Assembly (NCBI GenBank): GCA_964551435.1
Contig: CAZKBS010000001.1
Location: 219,222 to 283,221 of the forward strand
Direction: 5' to 3'
Source: an uncultured Micavibrio sp.
Lineage (GTDB): Bacteria; Pseudomonadota; Alphaproteobacteria; Micavibrionales; UBA2020
Length of the DNA: 64,000 bases
Both the position numbers and the translations under genes were made by a program. This document shows positions 1-51,169 of this stretch, one piece after another; the first letter of the stretch is position 1, and each line of letters opens with the position of its first letter. The notes under the pieces are model-generated. The model saw only the letters and a list, made by a program, of their open reading frames with translations. It made no database searches and was not told the origin of the DNA.

Positions 1-481
1 GACGCGGTTCCGGCACGGTGATCGGCGTTTCGGCCGCTTCGCGTTTGACTTTGAAAACTTCGAGCGTTTTGCGGATTTGCTCCGGCTCCAGCGGCAGCAG
101 CTGCTTGAGCGCGGTTTCAAACGCCTGCTCTTCCAGCTTGCGGCGCTGGTCGGCAGCCTCCTGCTCCATCAGCGCCTGCATTTCTGCGGCTGTCGCGCCG
201 ACCATCGGGCCGACGGGCAGCGTACCGGCAGGGCCAAGCGGGTTCGACATCATCGGATCGGCATTCATGGCGGCCATCGGGTTGATGGGCTCTTCCGCGG
301 CAGGCGCCGCGGCGGCGGGCGGTTGCTCGGCGGGCGCCGCGCTTTTTTTCGGCTCCACTTTCTGGCGCCACTGTTCGATTTCGTTCAGATCGGTTGTCTG
401 CGCCAGGGCCGATGCAGGCGCGAAAGCAGTCGCCGCGCCAATAACCGTCAGGCATACGATAGTTGAAACCAAAGGCCTCAT
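1..481 (-). CDS. icmK: Type IVB secretion core protein IcmK/DotH (TraN-like), N-terminal part; gene continues past the left edge
   Basis: Absent from the ORF track because it is truncated. Reverse-strand ATG at 481-479 preceded by AAGGAGAG. Translation MRPLVSTIVCLTVIGAATAFAPASALAQTTD (Sec signal), then EEQAFETALKQLLPLEPEQIRKTLEVFKVKREAAETPITVPEP, which matches the AF..LPL.P.QI segment I recall from IcmK/DotH. It lies directly downstream of IcmL/DotI genes, as in icmL-icmK operons. Confidence 0.6.
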   Translation of the reverse strand, partial: MRPLVSTIVCLTVIGAATAFAPASALAQTTDLNEIEQWRQKVEPKKSAAPAEQPPAAAAPAAEEPINPMAAMNADPMMSNPLGPAGTLPVGPMVGATAAEMQALMEQEAADQRRKLEEQAFETALKQLLPLEPEQIRKTLEVFKVKREAAETPITVPEPR

Positions 482-605
482 CGCAGTTCTCTCCTTAAAA
501 ATCCGCTCTCTATCGGGGCTGGTCTGGCGAGACCTCTTTTGTGCCGGACGGCAGAGAAGCATCATATTTATACCCTACGCACCATACGGCGCACAATGCC
601 AAAAC

Positions 606-1232
606 CTAGACAGACCACGTAAAGATGCCAAGGCCAGCCGGGTTTACCGACGTCGGCAGCCTTACGACAAACATTTGCACATTCGCGTTCACCCGCTTTT
701 CCTGACCGGGGACGCGAACCGTCAGAATAAGGGGCACCTGAATCATCCAGCCCTGTTTACCCATGTGCATTCCCTGCGCAACGATAGACGGCGGGGCGCG
801 CGGGATTGCCGTAATGACCTGCTGGAACTTTTGCGAGTTCTTGAACAGCGGTGACGTCACGAAGTTTTCACGAAAGCTTTTCAACCCCTCGGGCGAGAAA
901 TATTTCGACGCGCTGGCGAAACGCTGGTTCACGTCATCGAAACCGAAAGTCAGAATTTCGGTTGCAGCCTGCGCGGACCAGTCGAGCAGCAGGGCGTTGT
1001 TGATATAAGGCTCCGACAGGGCAACAAGGCGCAGTCTTTGCCCGCCCGACAGTTCGGCGAAATAGCGGTCTTGCGGGATCACATAGGCAACGCGATAAAA
1101 AACGGCAGCCAGAAGAACCATGATCACCAGAACAAGACCGATCGCGACACGGAACATATTTTTGTACCCGTCGCGATACGTCATCAGCTTTTCAAGATCG
1201 GCTGTGGCGTTTCTTTCTGCTTGCGTCGTCAA
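606..1232 (-). CDS. icmL: IcmL/DotI family T4BSS inner-membrane protein
   Basis: 208 aa. YRDGYKNMFR, then a TM helix (VAIGLVLVIMVLLAAVFYRVAYV), then DRYFAELSGG, LDWSAQAATEILTFGFDDVNQRF, SPEGLKSF and the C-terminal NPAGLGIFTWSV. Colinear with Legionella IcmL/DotI as I remember it. Confidence 0.8.
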   Translation of the reverse strand: MTTQAERNATADLEKLMTYRDGYKNMFRVAIGLVLVIMVLLAAVFYRVAYVIPQDRYFAELSGGQRLRLVALSEPYINNALLLDWSAQAATEILTFGFDDVNQRFASASKYFSPEGLKSFRENFVTSPLFKNSQKFQQVITAIPRAPPSIVAQGMHMGKQGWMIQVPLILTVRVPGQEKRVNANVQMFVVRLPTSVNPAGLGIFTWSV

Positions 1233-1259
1233 GACTTCCCCTGCCCCTGCTATGCCGGT

Positions 1260-48477: not shown

Positions 48478-48489
48478 CGTCCGCCACCC

Positions 48490-49773
48490 CTACCCGAAGC
48501 GCGGACGCAGGCGGAACTGTGCGCCTACATCGTCTGCCACGTTTTGCAGGCGGAAATGTTCGACCTGCGCGGCGATGGCATCCATATCTATCCATTTTTT
48601 ACGATCATCGCTGAGACGGCTTTCGAGACTGGAAAGAATATCGGTGTTTTTCTTCGCCCAGTAATCCGGCGCCAGCAGGACAGCGGCGTCTTCGCGGTCG
48701 ATGGCCAGGTGAATAACGCTGTCGCTGTGGCGCGTTTCGGCAAAAAGATCATCCATCGCAATCTGGCCGCCGCGCGTCAGGGCACGCATAACCTCTGGTA
48801 AACGCCGCGCCTTGGTGGCCAGCTGCAGGCCCGTATCGCCTTTTTCGGTGGCGGTTTGCAAAAGATCCTGCGCGCGGAAATCCTGCCCGAACAGCGCATC
48901 GAAAATATGGCGGTGTTTTTCAGTATAGGCCTGCTGCCATTTATCAAAGCGCTGACGCCATGTATCGGCGCGCGCGGTATCGTCCAGCTCGGTGAACTTC
49001 GCGGTGAGAAAGCGCTTGGCTTCGCCTTTCAGCGCGAAGGGGTCGGCGCCGGCATCGATGAATTTTTCAAGAAGTTCGGGGTATTCCTTTTCCTCCGGCA
49101 GCTTATAAACCACCAGCATCATCAGCATCGAGAGGGATTTTTCTTCATTCTCCGCGCAGAGGTCGATGAGGCGCGACATCATCGCGATATAATCCTGCTT
49201 GCGGTCTGCGAATTCTTCGTCGCGGGCGTTCATCAGCATCATGATCATGATGCTGCCATGCTGGTTTTGTCCCGCCGGCAGCGGGATATCCAGAAGCGCA
49301 TCGACGGCGCCATATTTCTTTTCCGTGGCCGCCATCAGCATCATGTTCGGCACAATAACCTTGTCCGGATATTCCTGCTGCAGGGCGGCGGCAAGCGCGG
49401 CTATTTTGTCTTCGGGCGCATTCTTGACGATCCGCGCGAGGCCTTCGGATTCCGCAATACCTGCCACCGTGCATTTTTCCAGCATCAGGATTGTTGTAGC
49501 GGGATGCCCTTGCTCCGACGCTTTGGCAAGATAGTTGACGTAGGCCGTCGGCGTCACATCATCGCCCGCATCATCCAGCAAGCGTTTGACCAGCGGCGCT
49601 GCATCGGCAGCGGCAATAATACCGCCAATCAGTTCAAAACGGAAATCGTCGCTGAGGGGCGCGCTGAAAGCCTGCATTTCGACGCGCGCCATATCGCCAT
49701 CGAGCACGGCCTGTCGCAGCTCGTTTTCAAGTGCGGCTTGGGAAGAATTCGGATCTGAAGGCGCTGCCGTCAT
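48490..49773 (-). CDS. Helical-repeat protein (very degenerate ANK-like) carrying the shared C-terminal module
   Basis: 427 aa. Lower GC and more Lys/Met/Ile than its neighbours. C-terminal MDDLFAETRHSDSVIHLAIDREDAAVLLAPDYW...QFRLRPRFG. Confidence 0.6.
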   Translation of the reverse strand: MTAAPSDPNSSQAALENELRQAVLDGDMARVEMQAFSAPLSDDFRFELIGGIIAAADAAPLVKRLLDDAGDDVTPTAYVNYLAKASEQGHPATTILMLEKCTVAGIAESEGLARIVKNAPEDKIAALAAALQQEYPDKVIVPNMMLMAATEKKYGAVDALLDIPLPAGQNQHGSIMIMMLMNARDEEFADRKQDYIAMMSRLIDLCAENEEKSLSMLMMLVVYKLPEEKEYPELLEKFIDAGADPFALKGEAKRFLTAKFTELDDTARADTWRQRFDKWQQAYTEKHRHIFDALFGQDFRAQDLLQTATEKGDTGLQLATKARRLPEVMRALTRGGQIAMDDLFAETRHSDSVIHLAIDREDAAVLLAPDYWAKKNTDILSSLESRLSDDRKKWIDMDAIAAQVEHFRLQNVADDVGAQFRLRPRFG

Positions 49774-49888
49774 GTCCTGGCGTCCGTTCCTGTCGGGGCT
49801 GTGCCCATTTATTTGATTCTACAAAGAAAAGATGCTTTATCGTAAAGAGGCACCATCTTTATGTCAATCAATCATTTTTTGTTTTAAA

Positions 49889-51169
49889 TCAAAGACTTGG
49901 GCGGCGCTTGAGTTTGAAACCGGTAAGCGGAATGATGTCATCGAGGGTGGCTTGTTCGGCTTTGCGCTGAATATCTTCGCGCATCTCGGCGCTCATAGCC
50001 TCCGGCGGCAGCAGGGTAAGCGCCGCGGCGAGTTTTTCGGTCTGGCCTTTCCATGCGGCGGGCGCGAAGAAAGCGGCGACGTCATCACGGCGCGCCAGCA
50101 CCTCCATCACGGTTTCGCCGCGGACGTTTTTTTGGGCAAAATCCGCGGCGGCAGGAATGGCCCTGTCAATCATCGCAAGGATGCGGTGTTCGGCGGCGTA
50201 GTGCAGGGCGGTCATGCCCGCGGCGGGGGCACGTGCGCGCAGCTTTTGCGCATCCGGCGGCTGGCCGCAATGCCCCTGCAAAACCGCAAGATGATGCGCA
50301 GCGGTTTCGGCTGCCGCCTCAGCAATCCGTGCGGCAAGCGGCGCATCATCTGCGACCGCTGCTATAGCCTTGCGCGGATGAAGGCCTGCACGCACCAATA
50401 GTTCCAGCAGCGCGCCGCCGTCCTGCGCGGCCTGCTGCGCGGCCGGATGCACCATCGCATCGGCGAAAGCGCCCGCATCGGCTCCTGCGCGCAAAAGCCA
50501 GCTGGCCATAGGCGTTTTTGCGCGGTCGACCGCCAGCCGCAGCGCTTTGTCGAGCGTGTCTTGCGAAAGAAGACCTTTCATCCGGCAGGTTTCTGTCACC
50601 CAGACAAGGGCGGGCATATTACCGCCCAGCACAGGCACATACATAAAATCGGACAGCGCAGCCGTGACATGCGGATAGATTTTCTGAATGACCTGCAGCG
50701 GGGCGGATTCAAGCGCCGGGCGAAACAGTTCGGCATAGACGGAAGGACCAGCGGGCAGCGTGTCCAGAAGACCCGTCAAATAATCCCACACCGGCATCTG
50801 TGTATCTGCGATGGCTTTGCGCCCCGCATCCTTGAGCGTTTTGGCGTCGATATGCTGCGGATATTGCTGCTGTACCCACTGCGCCAGCATGACATCCCCG
50901 CGCGCGCAGGCCCCCGTGAACAGTGTGCGCACGGCGGAGGCACGCGCCTGTTCCGGCCGTTTATGGTCTTGCCAGAGCGTTTCAAATGCCGCGGCATCGC
51001 TGCGCGCCGCGGCCGCCGAGAGCGCGGCCCAGGGCAGGGCGGCGGCATCGAAAACGGGTTTATGGCTGGCGGGCTGCATAGGCTGTTCCGTCGGTTTTGG
51101 TGATTTGAAACGCATTAAAGCGGATTTCATATTTATGTCAACGGTATTTAGGCTATACCTTTGACACAT
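49889..51169 (-). CDS. Ankyrin-like repeat protein carrying the shared C-terminal module
   Basis: 426 aa (the start is uncertain; 51130 or later ATGs are possible). LRLAVDRAKTPMASWLLRAGADA, MTALHYAAEHRILAMIDRAI. C-terminal AADFAQKNVRGETVMEVLARRDDVAAFFAPAAW...GFKLKRRPSL. Confidence 0.65.
   Translation of the reverse strand: MCQRYSLNTVDINMKSALMRFKSPKPTEQPMQPASHKPVFDAAALPWAALSAAAARSDAAAFETLWQDHKRPEQARASAVRTLFTGACARGDVMLAQWVQQQYPQHIDAKTLKDAGRKAIADTQMPVWDYLTGLLDTLPAGPSVYAELFRPALESAPLQVIQKIYPHVTAALSDFMYVPVLGGNMPALVWVTETCRMKGLLSQDTLDKALRLAVDRAKTPMASWLLRAGADAGAFADAMVHPAAQQAAQDGGALLELLVRAGLHPRKAIAAVADDAPLAARIAEAAAETAAHHLAVLQGHCGQPPDAQKLRARAPAAGMTALHYAAEHRILAMIDRAIPAAADFAQKNVRGETVMEVLARRDDVAAFFAPAAWKGQTEKLAAALTLLPPEAMSAEMREDIQRKAEQATLDDIIPLTGFKLKRRPSL

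Follow-up and report, generated by a model that had tools for sequence, protein, structure and literature searches.

Gene content of the locus

The window analysed here is the whole of a 64,000-nucleotide stretch of DNA (G+C content ~60%) from an uncultured Micavibrio sp. of the Alphaproteobacteria (contig CAZKBS010000001.1, positions 219,222 to 283,221). One end of the window carries type IVB secretion system (T4BSS) genes, beside which begins the first of two arrays of genes encoding ankyrin (ANK) repeat proteins; the second array lies beyond a phage-like gene cluster. The secretion system, the two arrays and the relation between them are the subject of this report. Coordinates refer to the window, except where a homologous locus from elsewhere is named by its L number. 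The T4BSS genes found in the window, with protein lengths in amino acid residues (aa), are the following.

1-481, minus strand: 5' part of dotH/icmK (first 160 of 378 codons; the gene runs past the window edge); PF12293
606-1232, minus strand: second dotI/icmL paralog (208 aa); PF11393, 119.7 bits; NCBIfam IcmL_DotI, 120 bits
1260-2138, minus strand: dotI/icmL (292 aa), opening the dotI-icmB block; PF11393, 174.3 bits

These are the dotH/icmK and the two icmL/dotI genes that the original prediction had read at 1-2138 from the translations, and the profile searches bear the reading out, the full-length DotH/IcmK protein reaching 251.5 bits with PF12293. The divergent gap of 444 bp that was described next to them (2139-2582) is also present, and it is followed by the first array.

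2583-3641, plus strand: HExxH putative zinc metallopeptidase, first gene of the array; PF20573 (DUF6782), 77.2 bits; weak match to NleD-type Peptidase_M91, E 0.0011
3638-5119, plus strand: ANK gene 1 (493 aa); Ank_2, 173.5 bits; orthologs 44-71% identical
5291-6706, plus strand: ANK gene 2 (471 aa); Ank_2, 151.5 bits; conserved tail ARRKQKPRGxExxL
6703-7995, plus strand: ANK gene 3 (430 aa); Ank_2, 181.2 bits; conserved tail KKPPSNGGGYQP
8086-9174, plus strand: ANK gene 4 (362 aa); Ank_2, 190.7 bits
9216-11012, plus strand: ANK gene 5 (598 aa, ~13 repeats); Ank_2, 300.4 bits
11103-11636, plus strand: ANK gene 6 (177 aa); Ank_4, 69.9 bits
12012-13232, plus strand: ANK gene 7 (406 aa); Ank_2, 103 bits
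13258-15546, plus strand: ANK gene 8 (~762 aa, ~15 repeats); Ank_2, 432.8 bits
16797-17660, minus strand: ANK gene 9 (~287 aa); Ank_2, 79.3 bits over the residues encoded by 16797-17657

The HExxH gene with its eight consecutive plus-strand ANK genes is therefore as first described, and all nine ANK genes of this set pass the Pfam gathering score. The gene at 16797 keeps its ANK assignment, but the listed open reading frame (ORF) of 551 codons at 16797-18452 (minus strand) is over-extended, its upstream part being antisense-like in composition and overlapping a likely small-terminase ORF at 17877-18302 (plus strand), and the gene was taken to span ~16797-17660. The single-sequence AlphaFold model of the HExxH protein was unusable, with a predicted local distance difference test score (pLDDT) of 35.5, and DUF6782 is unmentioned in the literature searched.

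The second array comprises the following ANK and ANK-like genes, five of which share a C-terminal module that is scored here with its own hidden Markov model (HMM).

39175-39783, minus strand: ANK gene 10 (202 aa); Ank_4, 88.7 bits; orthologs 81-85% identical in L157 and L158
40114-40752, minus strand: ANK gene 11 (212 aa); Ank, 42.8 bits
43107-43694, minus strand: ANK gene 12 (195 aa); Ank_2, 48.7 bits
43691-44782, minus strand: ANK-like gene 13 (363 aa), C-terminal module present; Ank_2, 26.4 bits (cut-off 27.3); module HMM, 68 bits
44785-45777, minus strand: ANK gene 14 (330 aa); Ank_2, 119.3 bits
45827-47419, minus strand: ANK gene 15 (530 aa), C-terminal module present; Ank_2, 35.7 bits; module HMM, 73 bits
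47416-48477, minus strand: ANK gene 16 (353 aa), C-terminal module present; Ank_2, 32.7 bits; module HMM, 87 bits
48490-49773, minus strand: helical-repeat protein (427 aa), ANK-like repeats degenerate, C-terminal module present; no Pfam match
49889-51169, minus strand: ANK-like gene 18 (426 aa), C-terminal module present; Ank_3, E 0.0046 only; module HMM, 83 bits

The ANK calls of the original prediction hold for 15 of the 18 genes, which lie at or above the Pfam gathering score, six of them in the second set (39175, 40114, 43107, 44785, 45827 and 47416); the call at 43691 is marginal, that at 49889 weak, and that at 48490 is without a match. Together the 18 coding sequences amount to ~21.1 kb or 33% of the window, in keeping with the third originally estimated. 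The 4-bp start/stop overlaps reported in both arrays are real, being ATGA at 3638 and GTGA at 6703 and, on the minus strand, ATGA at 43691 and 47416.

The protein encoded at 48490-49773 was examined separately. Its AlphaFold2 model, calculated with 18 aligned orthologs (pLDDT 88.4), consists entirely of paired helices and would form an alpha-solenoid, for which Foldseek returned only weak and mixed matches to TPR, PPR and DARPin/ANK solenoids (E >0.005, template-modelling score <=0.29). The 18 ortholog clusters are 46-97% identical and share an invariant Arg in the tail QFRLRPR, and one ortholog carries a precomputed Ank_2 match. 'ANK-like' may be considered a fair but loose label for this protein, degenerate ANK-like repeats in its C-terminal part being suggested by that match and by an iterated profile of the same part, which drifts towards ANK proteins. 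A search of PDB sequences gave no match for it, nor for the HExxH protein or the proteins encoded at 51470 and 53979.

Type of the secretion system

The T4BSS block was followed beyond the window on a Logan contig (L001, from SRR12997672), which is identical to window positions 1-12138 and reaches 8.7 kb further left. It supplies the complete DotH/IcmK (378 aa; L001 11658-12794), which matches the L. pneumophila IcmK structure (PDB 6x62) with E 1.3e-46, and shows that the block continues in the order DotH, DotG/IcmE, DotF-like protein, two small membrane proteins, DotN/IcmJ and IcmB/DotO. DotG/IcmE (470 aa) contains a TrbI domain and scores 117 bits with the NCBIfam IcmE model versus 64 with TraO, and the DotF-like protein, a coiled-coil membrane protein of 415 aa, gives a weak match of 33.6 bits versus 25.6 for TraP. 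The two small membrane proteins belong to DUF6750, are weakly TraQ-like and were labelled DotE/P-like. DotN/IcmJ, a CxxC protein, reaches 98.2 bits (NCBIfam cut-off 100) and matches PDB 5x1h with E 3e-19, and IcmB/DotO (~1000 aa) clusters with close homologs named IcmB by NCBI and JGI. The DotI protein at 1260-2138 scores 171.6 bits in NCBIfam, just below the equivalog cut-off of 175, and matches the DotI structure 3wz4 with 93.7 bits versus 29.5 bits for TraM of R64 (3wz3). Solved structures of DotI, IcmK, IcmE and IcmJ were thus all matched by sequence. Of the other genes named in the original prediction for the DNA left of the window, dotG/icmE is there; dotB, dotL and dotM were not seen in this genome's fetched DNA, and a relaxase was not found among the ORFs scanned in the window and the adjoining 8.7 kb. 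IcmQ was likewise not seen in the fetched DNA, and a search for a type IV coupling protein (T4CP), with that of a Bosea plasmid as query, gave no match in any fetched locus.

A scan with one genome per GTDB species detected relatives of the 292-aa DotI in 65 genomes. In nearly all loci long enough to show the order, DotI is followed by DotH-DotG-DotF(-C-D-DotN-IcmB), and the flanks of the dotI-icmB block are housekeeping genes, namely hslVU past icmB in L067 and flagellar genes, putA, PBP1A and murC in other lineages. DotA, DotB, DotC, DotD and IcmT were found only in more distant lineages of this radiation, adjoining the dotI block. In L019 (14782-18732) these are a TcpQ-domain protein, IcmT (88.6 bits), DotB (404 bits, versus 238 for the TraJ model), DotC/TraI (PF16932, 266 bits) and DotD (105 bits), and in L031 (14971-17766) a DotA/TraY protein (279 bits) directly adjoins the block. 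The arrangement of the machine parts hence varies among lineages, as the DotA/TraY of L031 and the DotB-C-D set of L019 illustrate. The long unassigned ORFs of other lineages proved to be mostly housekeeping genes; one was DotA and four were without an NCBIfam match.

Every core gene of the block has a counterpart in IncI conjugation systems too. In IncI1 (R64) and alphaproteobacterial megaplasmid systems the homologous core is formed by TraM/DotI, TraN/DotH, TraO/DotG, TraP/DotF, TraQ, TraT/DotN and TraU/IcmB, and it could accordingly be argued that the T4BSS belongs to an integrated element and transfers DNA by IncI-like conjugation, the ANK genes merely happening to lie next to it; an IncI-type transfer module was what the original prediction named as a refutation. 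IcmB homologs do occur on alphaproteobacterial megaplasmids, the nearest plasmid IcmB being 43% identical, and the loci concerned, of which the Bosea plasmid L069 served as contrast, hold a T4CP, a primase and a prepilin peptidase. The block described here differs from these systems in its chromosomal position and apparently vertical inheritance. No relaxase, T4CP or pilus gene, including thin-pilus genes, was found among the ORFs scanned with Pfam and NCBIfam in the window plus the adjoining 8.7 kb (73 kb), and Dot/Icm models and structures outscore those of IncI Tra proteins in every comparison made (DotI, DotG and DotF, and DotB in L019). Because the block is syntenic in ~65 species between housekeeping flanks, the scores favour Dot/Icm and no relaxase was found among the ORFs scanned in the 73 kb, a conjugation module is very improbable. 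The evidence supports a T4BSS of the Dot/Icm type, carried on the chromosome and inherited vertically, and speaks against an IncI plasmid module.

T4BSS genes in 'Micavibrionales' metagenome-assembled genomes (MAGs) have already been noted in passing. In the available excerpt of Needham et al. 2022 (PMC9418006), MacSyFinder classed the type IV secretion systems (T4SS) of seven marine 'Micavibrionales' MAGs as pT4SSi, that is, as relaxase-free, which likewise speaks against conjugation; the seven are counted there among 25 other marine bacteria with pT4SSi, and Comchoanobacterales are also included. The present system resembles those in being an I-type T4SS without a relaxase (here in 73 kb) in uncultured bacteria. 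In that excerpt the Micavibrionales are only counted, and neither a locus nor an effector set nor a linkage to ANK genes is given for them.

Conservation of the ankyrin arrays

An ANK profile was built from the window and run across all 66 loci. Six or seven ANK genes of the same sizes and in the same order lie divergently upstream of dotI in L002, L003, L004, L006, L008 and, in part, L007 (DotI identity 55-86%), and the HExxH gene and ANK genes stand in the same order beside dotI in L067 and L159 too. Orthologs of the HExxH gene occupy the same position in L002-L008, L067 and L159. Further ANK-type genes are found past icmB, two in L067 and at least one in L159, and L067 has a second DUF6782 copy there, before hslVU. 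None of the ~55 more distant T4BSS loci (~20 kb each) yielded an ANK gene with the window-built profile; the ANK density of the window is far above chance.

The second array is syntenic gene for gene, with 48-85% identity, in L157 and L158, where gyrB, tdk and DUF3126 are followed by seven array genes, then TetR, two small genes and two ANK genes, exactly as in the window. L157 shares a 140-kb contig with the T4BSS locus L003, at a distance of ~50 kb that is also that of the window. Between the window and the L003 genome GyrB is 92% and IcmB 93% identical, and the array proteins 48-85%. The array proteins appear to be conserved single-copy orthologs that evolve fast, as would be expected of proteins facing another organism. 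More distant orthologs of the second array came from protein search; a scan of metagenome contigs with the 530-aa protein, and one of viral contigs with the gpJ-like protein of the phage-like cluster, gave only close relatives (78-99% identity).

Both ANK arrays are restricted to one subclade and are syntenic there gene for gene. The comparison of related genomes, named at the outset as a check, shows the same array order beside dotI in 6-7 related species and the second array in L157 and L158, and supports that the arrays are tied to the T4BSS both physically and evolutionarily.

The slot divergently upstream of dotI is occupied differently in other lineages. In place of the ANK array of the window's clade, it holds there 2-6 tandem paralogs of 415-560 aa with signal peptides (e.g. 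L019 4215-9793), a family seen also in L020-L023, L030, L032, L034, L035, L038 and L066. No Pfam, NCBIfam or PDB match was obtained for the paralogs of the L019 type.

C-terminal tails and the shared module

No N-terminal signal peptide is present in any ANK or HExxH protein. At the C-terminus of nearly every array protein stands a short tail in which Lys, Arg and Pro are frequent, for instance LKKSPKPYSPKPPRPPWGFY, FRLPQRRKGGQTPPRP or APKPPKPPAP, and ortholog alignments place these tails among the best-conserved parts of the fast-evolving proteins; the tail LKKSPKPYSPKPPRPPWG of ANK gene 5 is near-invariant down to 59% overall identity. In 21 candidates the last 25 residues contain on average 9.3 K/R/P residues, as against 5.1 for a control set of 33 other window proteins (Mann-Whitney p = 1e-6), a difference that is suggestive, the pattern having been noticed before the test and some of the control ORFs being uncertain.

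In five proteins of the window (those encoded at 43691, 45827, 47416, 48490 and 49889) and two encoded past icmB in L067 (13047-15165), the C-terminus is formed by a module of ~70 aa with the pattern [LF]-x-P-x-x-W ... F-[RK]-L-x-x-[RK]-[RKP]. This paralog family thus has at least seven members, located on both sides of the T4BSS block. When an HMM of the C-terminal region (135 aa) was iterated, it came to match all ANK proteins; in its place a non-iterated model of the 80-aa tail was used, which matches only the module-bearing proteins and their orthologs.

The last 60 residues of the array proteins have a mean isoelectric point (pI) of 8.7 and contain 23% KHPMWC residues. Type I substrate signals are acidic and poor in KHPMWC residues, including those of the Orientia Anks (PMC4315096), and the C-termini of the array proteins are, by their composition, unlike type I secretion signals. 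A reading of the arrays as a defence island was also tried and rejected, since PADLOC models run on ten array proteins matched them only faintly, within their ANK regions.

The phage-like cluster

Between the two arrays lies the following cluster.

17877-39057, plus strand: phage-like head, tail and lysis cluster, with the small-terminase-like ORF at 17877-18302 and further head, tail and lysis genes

The head genes encode a large terminase, portal, S78 protease, HK97-type capsid, adaptor and head completion protein, and the tail and lysis genes a tail completion protein, tail tube, DUF1833, NlpC/P60, a gpJ-like protein of 1427 aa and, in small ORFs, membrane or lysis-like proteins. A tape-measure gene of the usual length was not found in the cluster, the best candidate by eye having 157 codons (30529-31002), and no integrase, repressor or replication gene was found in it either. 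Scans of the window for tRNA genes and Rfam families returned nothing, so that there is no tRNA attachment site for a prophage. The cluster stands at the same ANK-gene junction in the IMG/VR contigs L071 and L072, whose capsid proteins are 81% and 87% identical to that of the window; in L071 it adjoins a homolog of ANK gene 8. From the spacing in the L003 genome, the cluster is implied there too. Since its position has been kept while it diverged along with the chromosome, it looks domesticated and could be a gene transfer agent.

A relation to the gene transfer agent RcGTA may be considered, the cluster having structural and lysis genes without integrase or replication genes and a conserved position (L071 and L072). 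Its head-to-tail and tail-tube genes include PF05521, PF11367, PF06199 and PF11836, which we take to be RcGTA families, but its distal tail genes are, unlike those of RcGTA, lambda-like (DUF1833, NlpC/P60 and gpJ).

ANK genes abut the cluster at both ends (16797-17660 and 39175-39783), and this junction recurs in L071 and L072. ANK-repeat genes directly beside phage structural genes are also a feature of the eukaryotic association module of the Wolbachia phage WO, and by analogy the arrays could be accessory cargo of the phage-like element, the proximity of the T4BSS being incidental and any export proceeding by another route, for example type I, for which Orientia Anks are substrates (PMC4315096). 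We regard this as quite unlikely. Unlike WO, the cluster is devoid of integrase and replication genes and keeps a fixed position across species as the surrounding chromosome does. Neither an attachment site nor a tRNA gene was found for it, and the ANK arrays reach to and past the T4BSS operon, the first starting 444 bp from dotI and further ANK-type genes lying past icmB, on the side remote from the phage genes. The C-terminal composition given above (pI 8.7, 23% KHPMWC) is, moreover, the opposite of the usual type I signal. The arrays are better explained as belonging with the T4BSS.

Control region and neighbouring genes

When the region upstream of dotI was aligned for eight species, it proved unalignable except for 33 nearly invariant columns. 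These form the first of two conserved blocks.

2262-2294, dotI strand: first conserved block, TTGCGG-17 nt-TAGTAT; alignment of eight species
2519-2550, directed towards the HExxH gene: second conserved block, TTTACA-17 nt-TAATCC; kept among closer relatives

From their sequences and orientation, the two blocks are probably a pair of divergent promoters, one for each side of the gap; a generic sigma-70 promoter scan of 2100-2620 returned no site at its thresholds. An AT-rich octamer, GTTTTAAA, occurs at six sites in the effector intergenic regions versus 1.55 expected (1 of 100 shuffles equalled this), and its positions adjoining array genes are 2497, 40076, 40771, 49881 and 51176. As a regulatory site it was rejected, being too weak statistically and perhaps merely reflecting AT-rich promoters.

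The remaining genes within or next to the arrays are these.

15605-16108 and 16134-16796, plus strand: two small Pro/Ala-rich non-ANK proteins with N-terminal signal peptides (read from the translation); no Pfam match
40878-41354 and 41398-41832, plus strand: two small ORFs with K/P-rich tails; no domain match; similar-sized genes at the same place in L157 and L158
42444-43025, plus strand: TetR-family regulator within the second array; the window ORF was read by eye, and its ortholog in L157 and L158 has PF00440 (TetR_N)

A gene like that at 15605 is kept in L071 and L072. The small ORFs at 40878-41354 and 41398-41832, which the original prediction does not list, may encode further small substrates, and the TetR-family gene is a candidate local regulator of the second array.

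The organism and its possible way of life

The many MAG proteins that match GyrB (54929-57385) with 77-99% identity form a dense set and bear the labels Rhodospirillaceae, Alphaproteobacteria or Micavibrio sp., and GyrB is at most 74% identical to others; that of the cultured Rhodospirillales Dongia, Reyranella and Magnetospirillum is 67-69% identical. The GyrB of the cultured Micavibrio aeruginosavorus was not among the best 120 matches (identity >=66%), and because it falls outside these while cultured Rhodospirillales fall inside, the known predator is no close relative of this lineage. Among named relatives the nearest are MAGs that bear the labels Micavibrio sp. or Bdellovibrionales, and 'Micavibrionales' is likewise used here as a label that relatives bear. 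The genome comprises at least 2.56 Mb, judging from a JGI contig that is 99% identical across the second array, and it is therefore not reduced.

Micavibrio is a genus that preys on bacteria, and the main competing explanation is accordingly that the T4BSS serves predation on bacteria, the ANK and HExxH proteins being anti-bacterial effectors or immunity or adaptor partners. The labels of the nearest named relatives agree with this, as does the size of the genome, which resembles that of the cultured predator, reportedly 2.48 Mb (ARL-13). Furthermore, the T4BSS is widespread in the radiation and mostly without ANK genes, so that the machine needs no ANK cargo. Against it stand the distance of the lineage from the known predator seen with GyrB, the lack of any evident toxin-immunity pair architecture, and the size of the arrays, since ANK arrays this large are otherwise typical of bacteria dealing with eukaryotic cells. 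The cultured M. aeruginosavorus, moreover, is without a T4SS (PMC3189940). Predation on bacteria is in our view an unlikely purpose of this locus, and the ANK content makes a eukaryotic target plausible.

Proposed mechanism and significance

We consider it probable, with a clear margin of doubt, that the locus represents a Dot/Icm-like T4BSS that is located on the chromosome and inherited vertically, and beside it a clade-specific island of candidate effectors. One end of the core operon lies in the window, with dotI, the second dotI paralog and dotH, then leftwards dotG, the dotF-like gene, the dotE/P-like genes, dotN and icmB, and probable substrate genes flank this operon on both sides. As candidate substrates we count two DUF6782 HExxH metallopeptidases and ~20 proteins with ankyrin or ankyrin-like repeats, which would be made in the cytoplasm without signal peptides and be recognised by their C-terminal tails, conserved as basic and proline-rich; for one paralog family, the ~70-aa C-terminal module with the ending F-[RK]-L-x-x-[RK]-[RKP] would serve as the signal. 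Delivery of the candidates by the T4BSS would then be into a target cell, where the ANK solenoids may bind target proteins. In its reading of an effector island in a host-associated alphaproteobacterium, the original prediction stands as to the Dot/Icm type, the physical linkage of the arrays to the T4BSS and the bacterial class; translocation, the role of the tails as signals and the eukaryotic nature of the target are what we infer from the locus.

Several points weigh against an effector island of this kind. Some of the NCBIfam scores of the machine proteins fall slightly below the equivalog cut-offs, and DotL/DotM, IcmS/IcmW and dotA-D were not seen in this genome's fetched DNA. Known Legionella Dot/Icm signals are Glu-rich and not basic, the statistical support for the K/R/P tails is suggestive because the test came after the observation, and the tails may instead be nuclear-localisation or SH3-binding motifs acting in a eukaryotic cell. 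The genome is unreduced and no host is on record, and it may be that the association with a host, proposed in the original prediction, does not apply. Finally, the cultured member of Micavibrio, M. aeruginosavorus, is a predator of bacteria and has no T4SS (PMC3189940).

A more far-reaching proposal is that bacteria of this kind, alphaproteobacteria filed under Micavibrio and with unreduced genomes, attack or colonise eukaryotic cells by means of a Dot/Icm-like T4BSS, a vertically inherited effector island and a new type of basic, Pro-rich tail signal, placed in one family after a 70-aa module. It is put forward tentatively, the balance of the evidence leaning somewhat away from it. Recent reviews (PMC11338181, PMC8896642) regard T4BSS that translocate effectors as a hallmark of deep-branching intracellular gammaproteobacteria. 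The pairing of a T4BSS with ANK cargo has to date been reported almost exclusively from Legionella-like gammaproteobacteria; a machine of that kind is conserved here in uncultured alphaproteobacteria, throughout a large radiation. If the proposal is true, Dot/Icm-style host manipulation is no speciality of Legionella-like gammaproteobacteria, and the lineage offers a compact, physically defined effector set. A small clustered set of ~20 candidates with recognisable tails would ease the study of how a T4BSS chooses its cargo, and the lineages with and without ANK arrays form a natural comparison for the gain of an effector repertoire. The locus also raises the question of what 'Micavibrio-like' bacteria live on.

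Comparison with known systems

The combination of a secretion machine with ANK effectors is familiar from the Legionellales. The alphaproteobacterial lineage, the tight syntenic clustering of cargo around the machine, the basic Pro-rich tails and the ANK linkage were not found described in the literature searched. The Legionella gene order is icmL-K-E-G-C-D-J-B, and the order here, icmL-icmK-icmE-icmG-(icmC/D)-icmJ-icmB, is the same. As in the Dot/Icm systems of L. pneumophila and Coxiella burnetii, there are many ANK proteins without signal peptides and with signal-like C-terminal regions.

The system differs from that of Legionella in its alphaproteobacterial host lineage and in several parts of the machine. 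DotG is short, with 470 aa versus 1048; there are two full DotI paralogs, the second of which (606-1232) takes the slot that DotJ occupies in Legionella; dotL and dotM are not located upstream of dotI, and the fetched DNA showed no IcmS, IcmW or IcmQ. Legionella effectors number in the hundreds and are scattered and redundant, whereas the candidate effectors here are packed in two syntenic arrays touching the machine genes, and their tails are basic and proline-rich instead of Glu-rich.

In this last respect an analogy may be drawn with type IVA effectors, which are known to carry bipartite C-terminal signals, such as the BID domain plus positively charged tail of Bartonella and the XVIPCD of Xanthomonas. 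The paralog family described here similarly has a conserved C-terminal domain followed by a basic tail. The resemblance is one of general layout, no sequence similarity being claimed, and in contrast to Bartonella and Xanthomonas the secretion system beside which this family is encoded is of type IVB.

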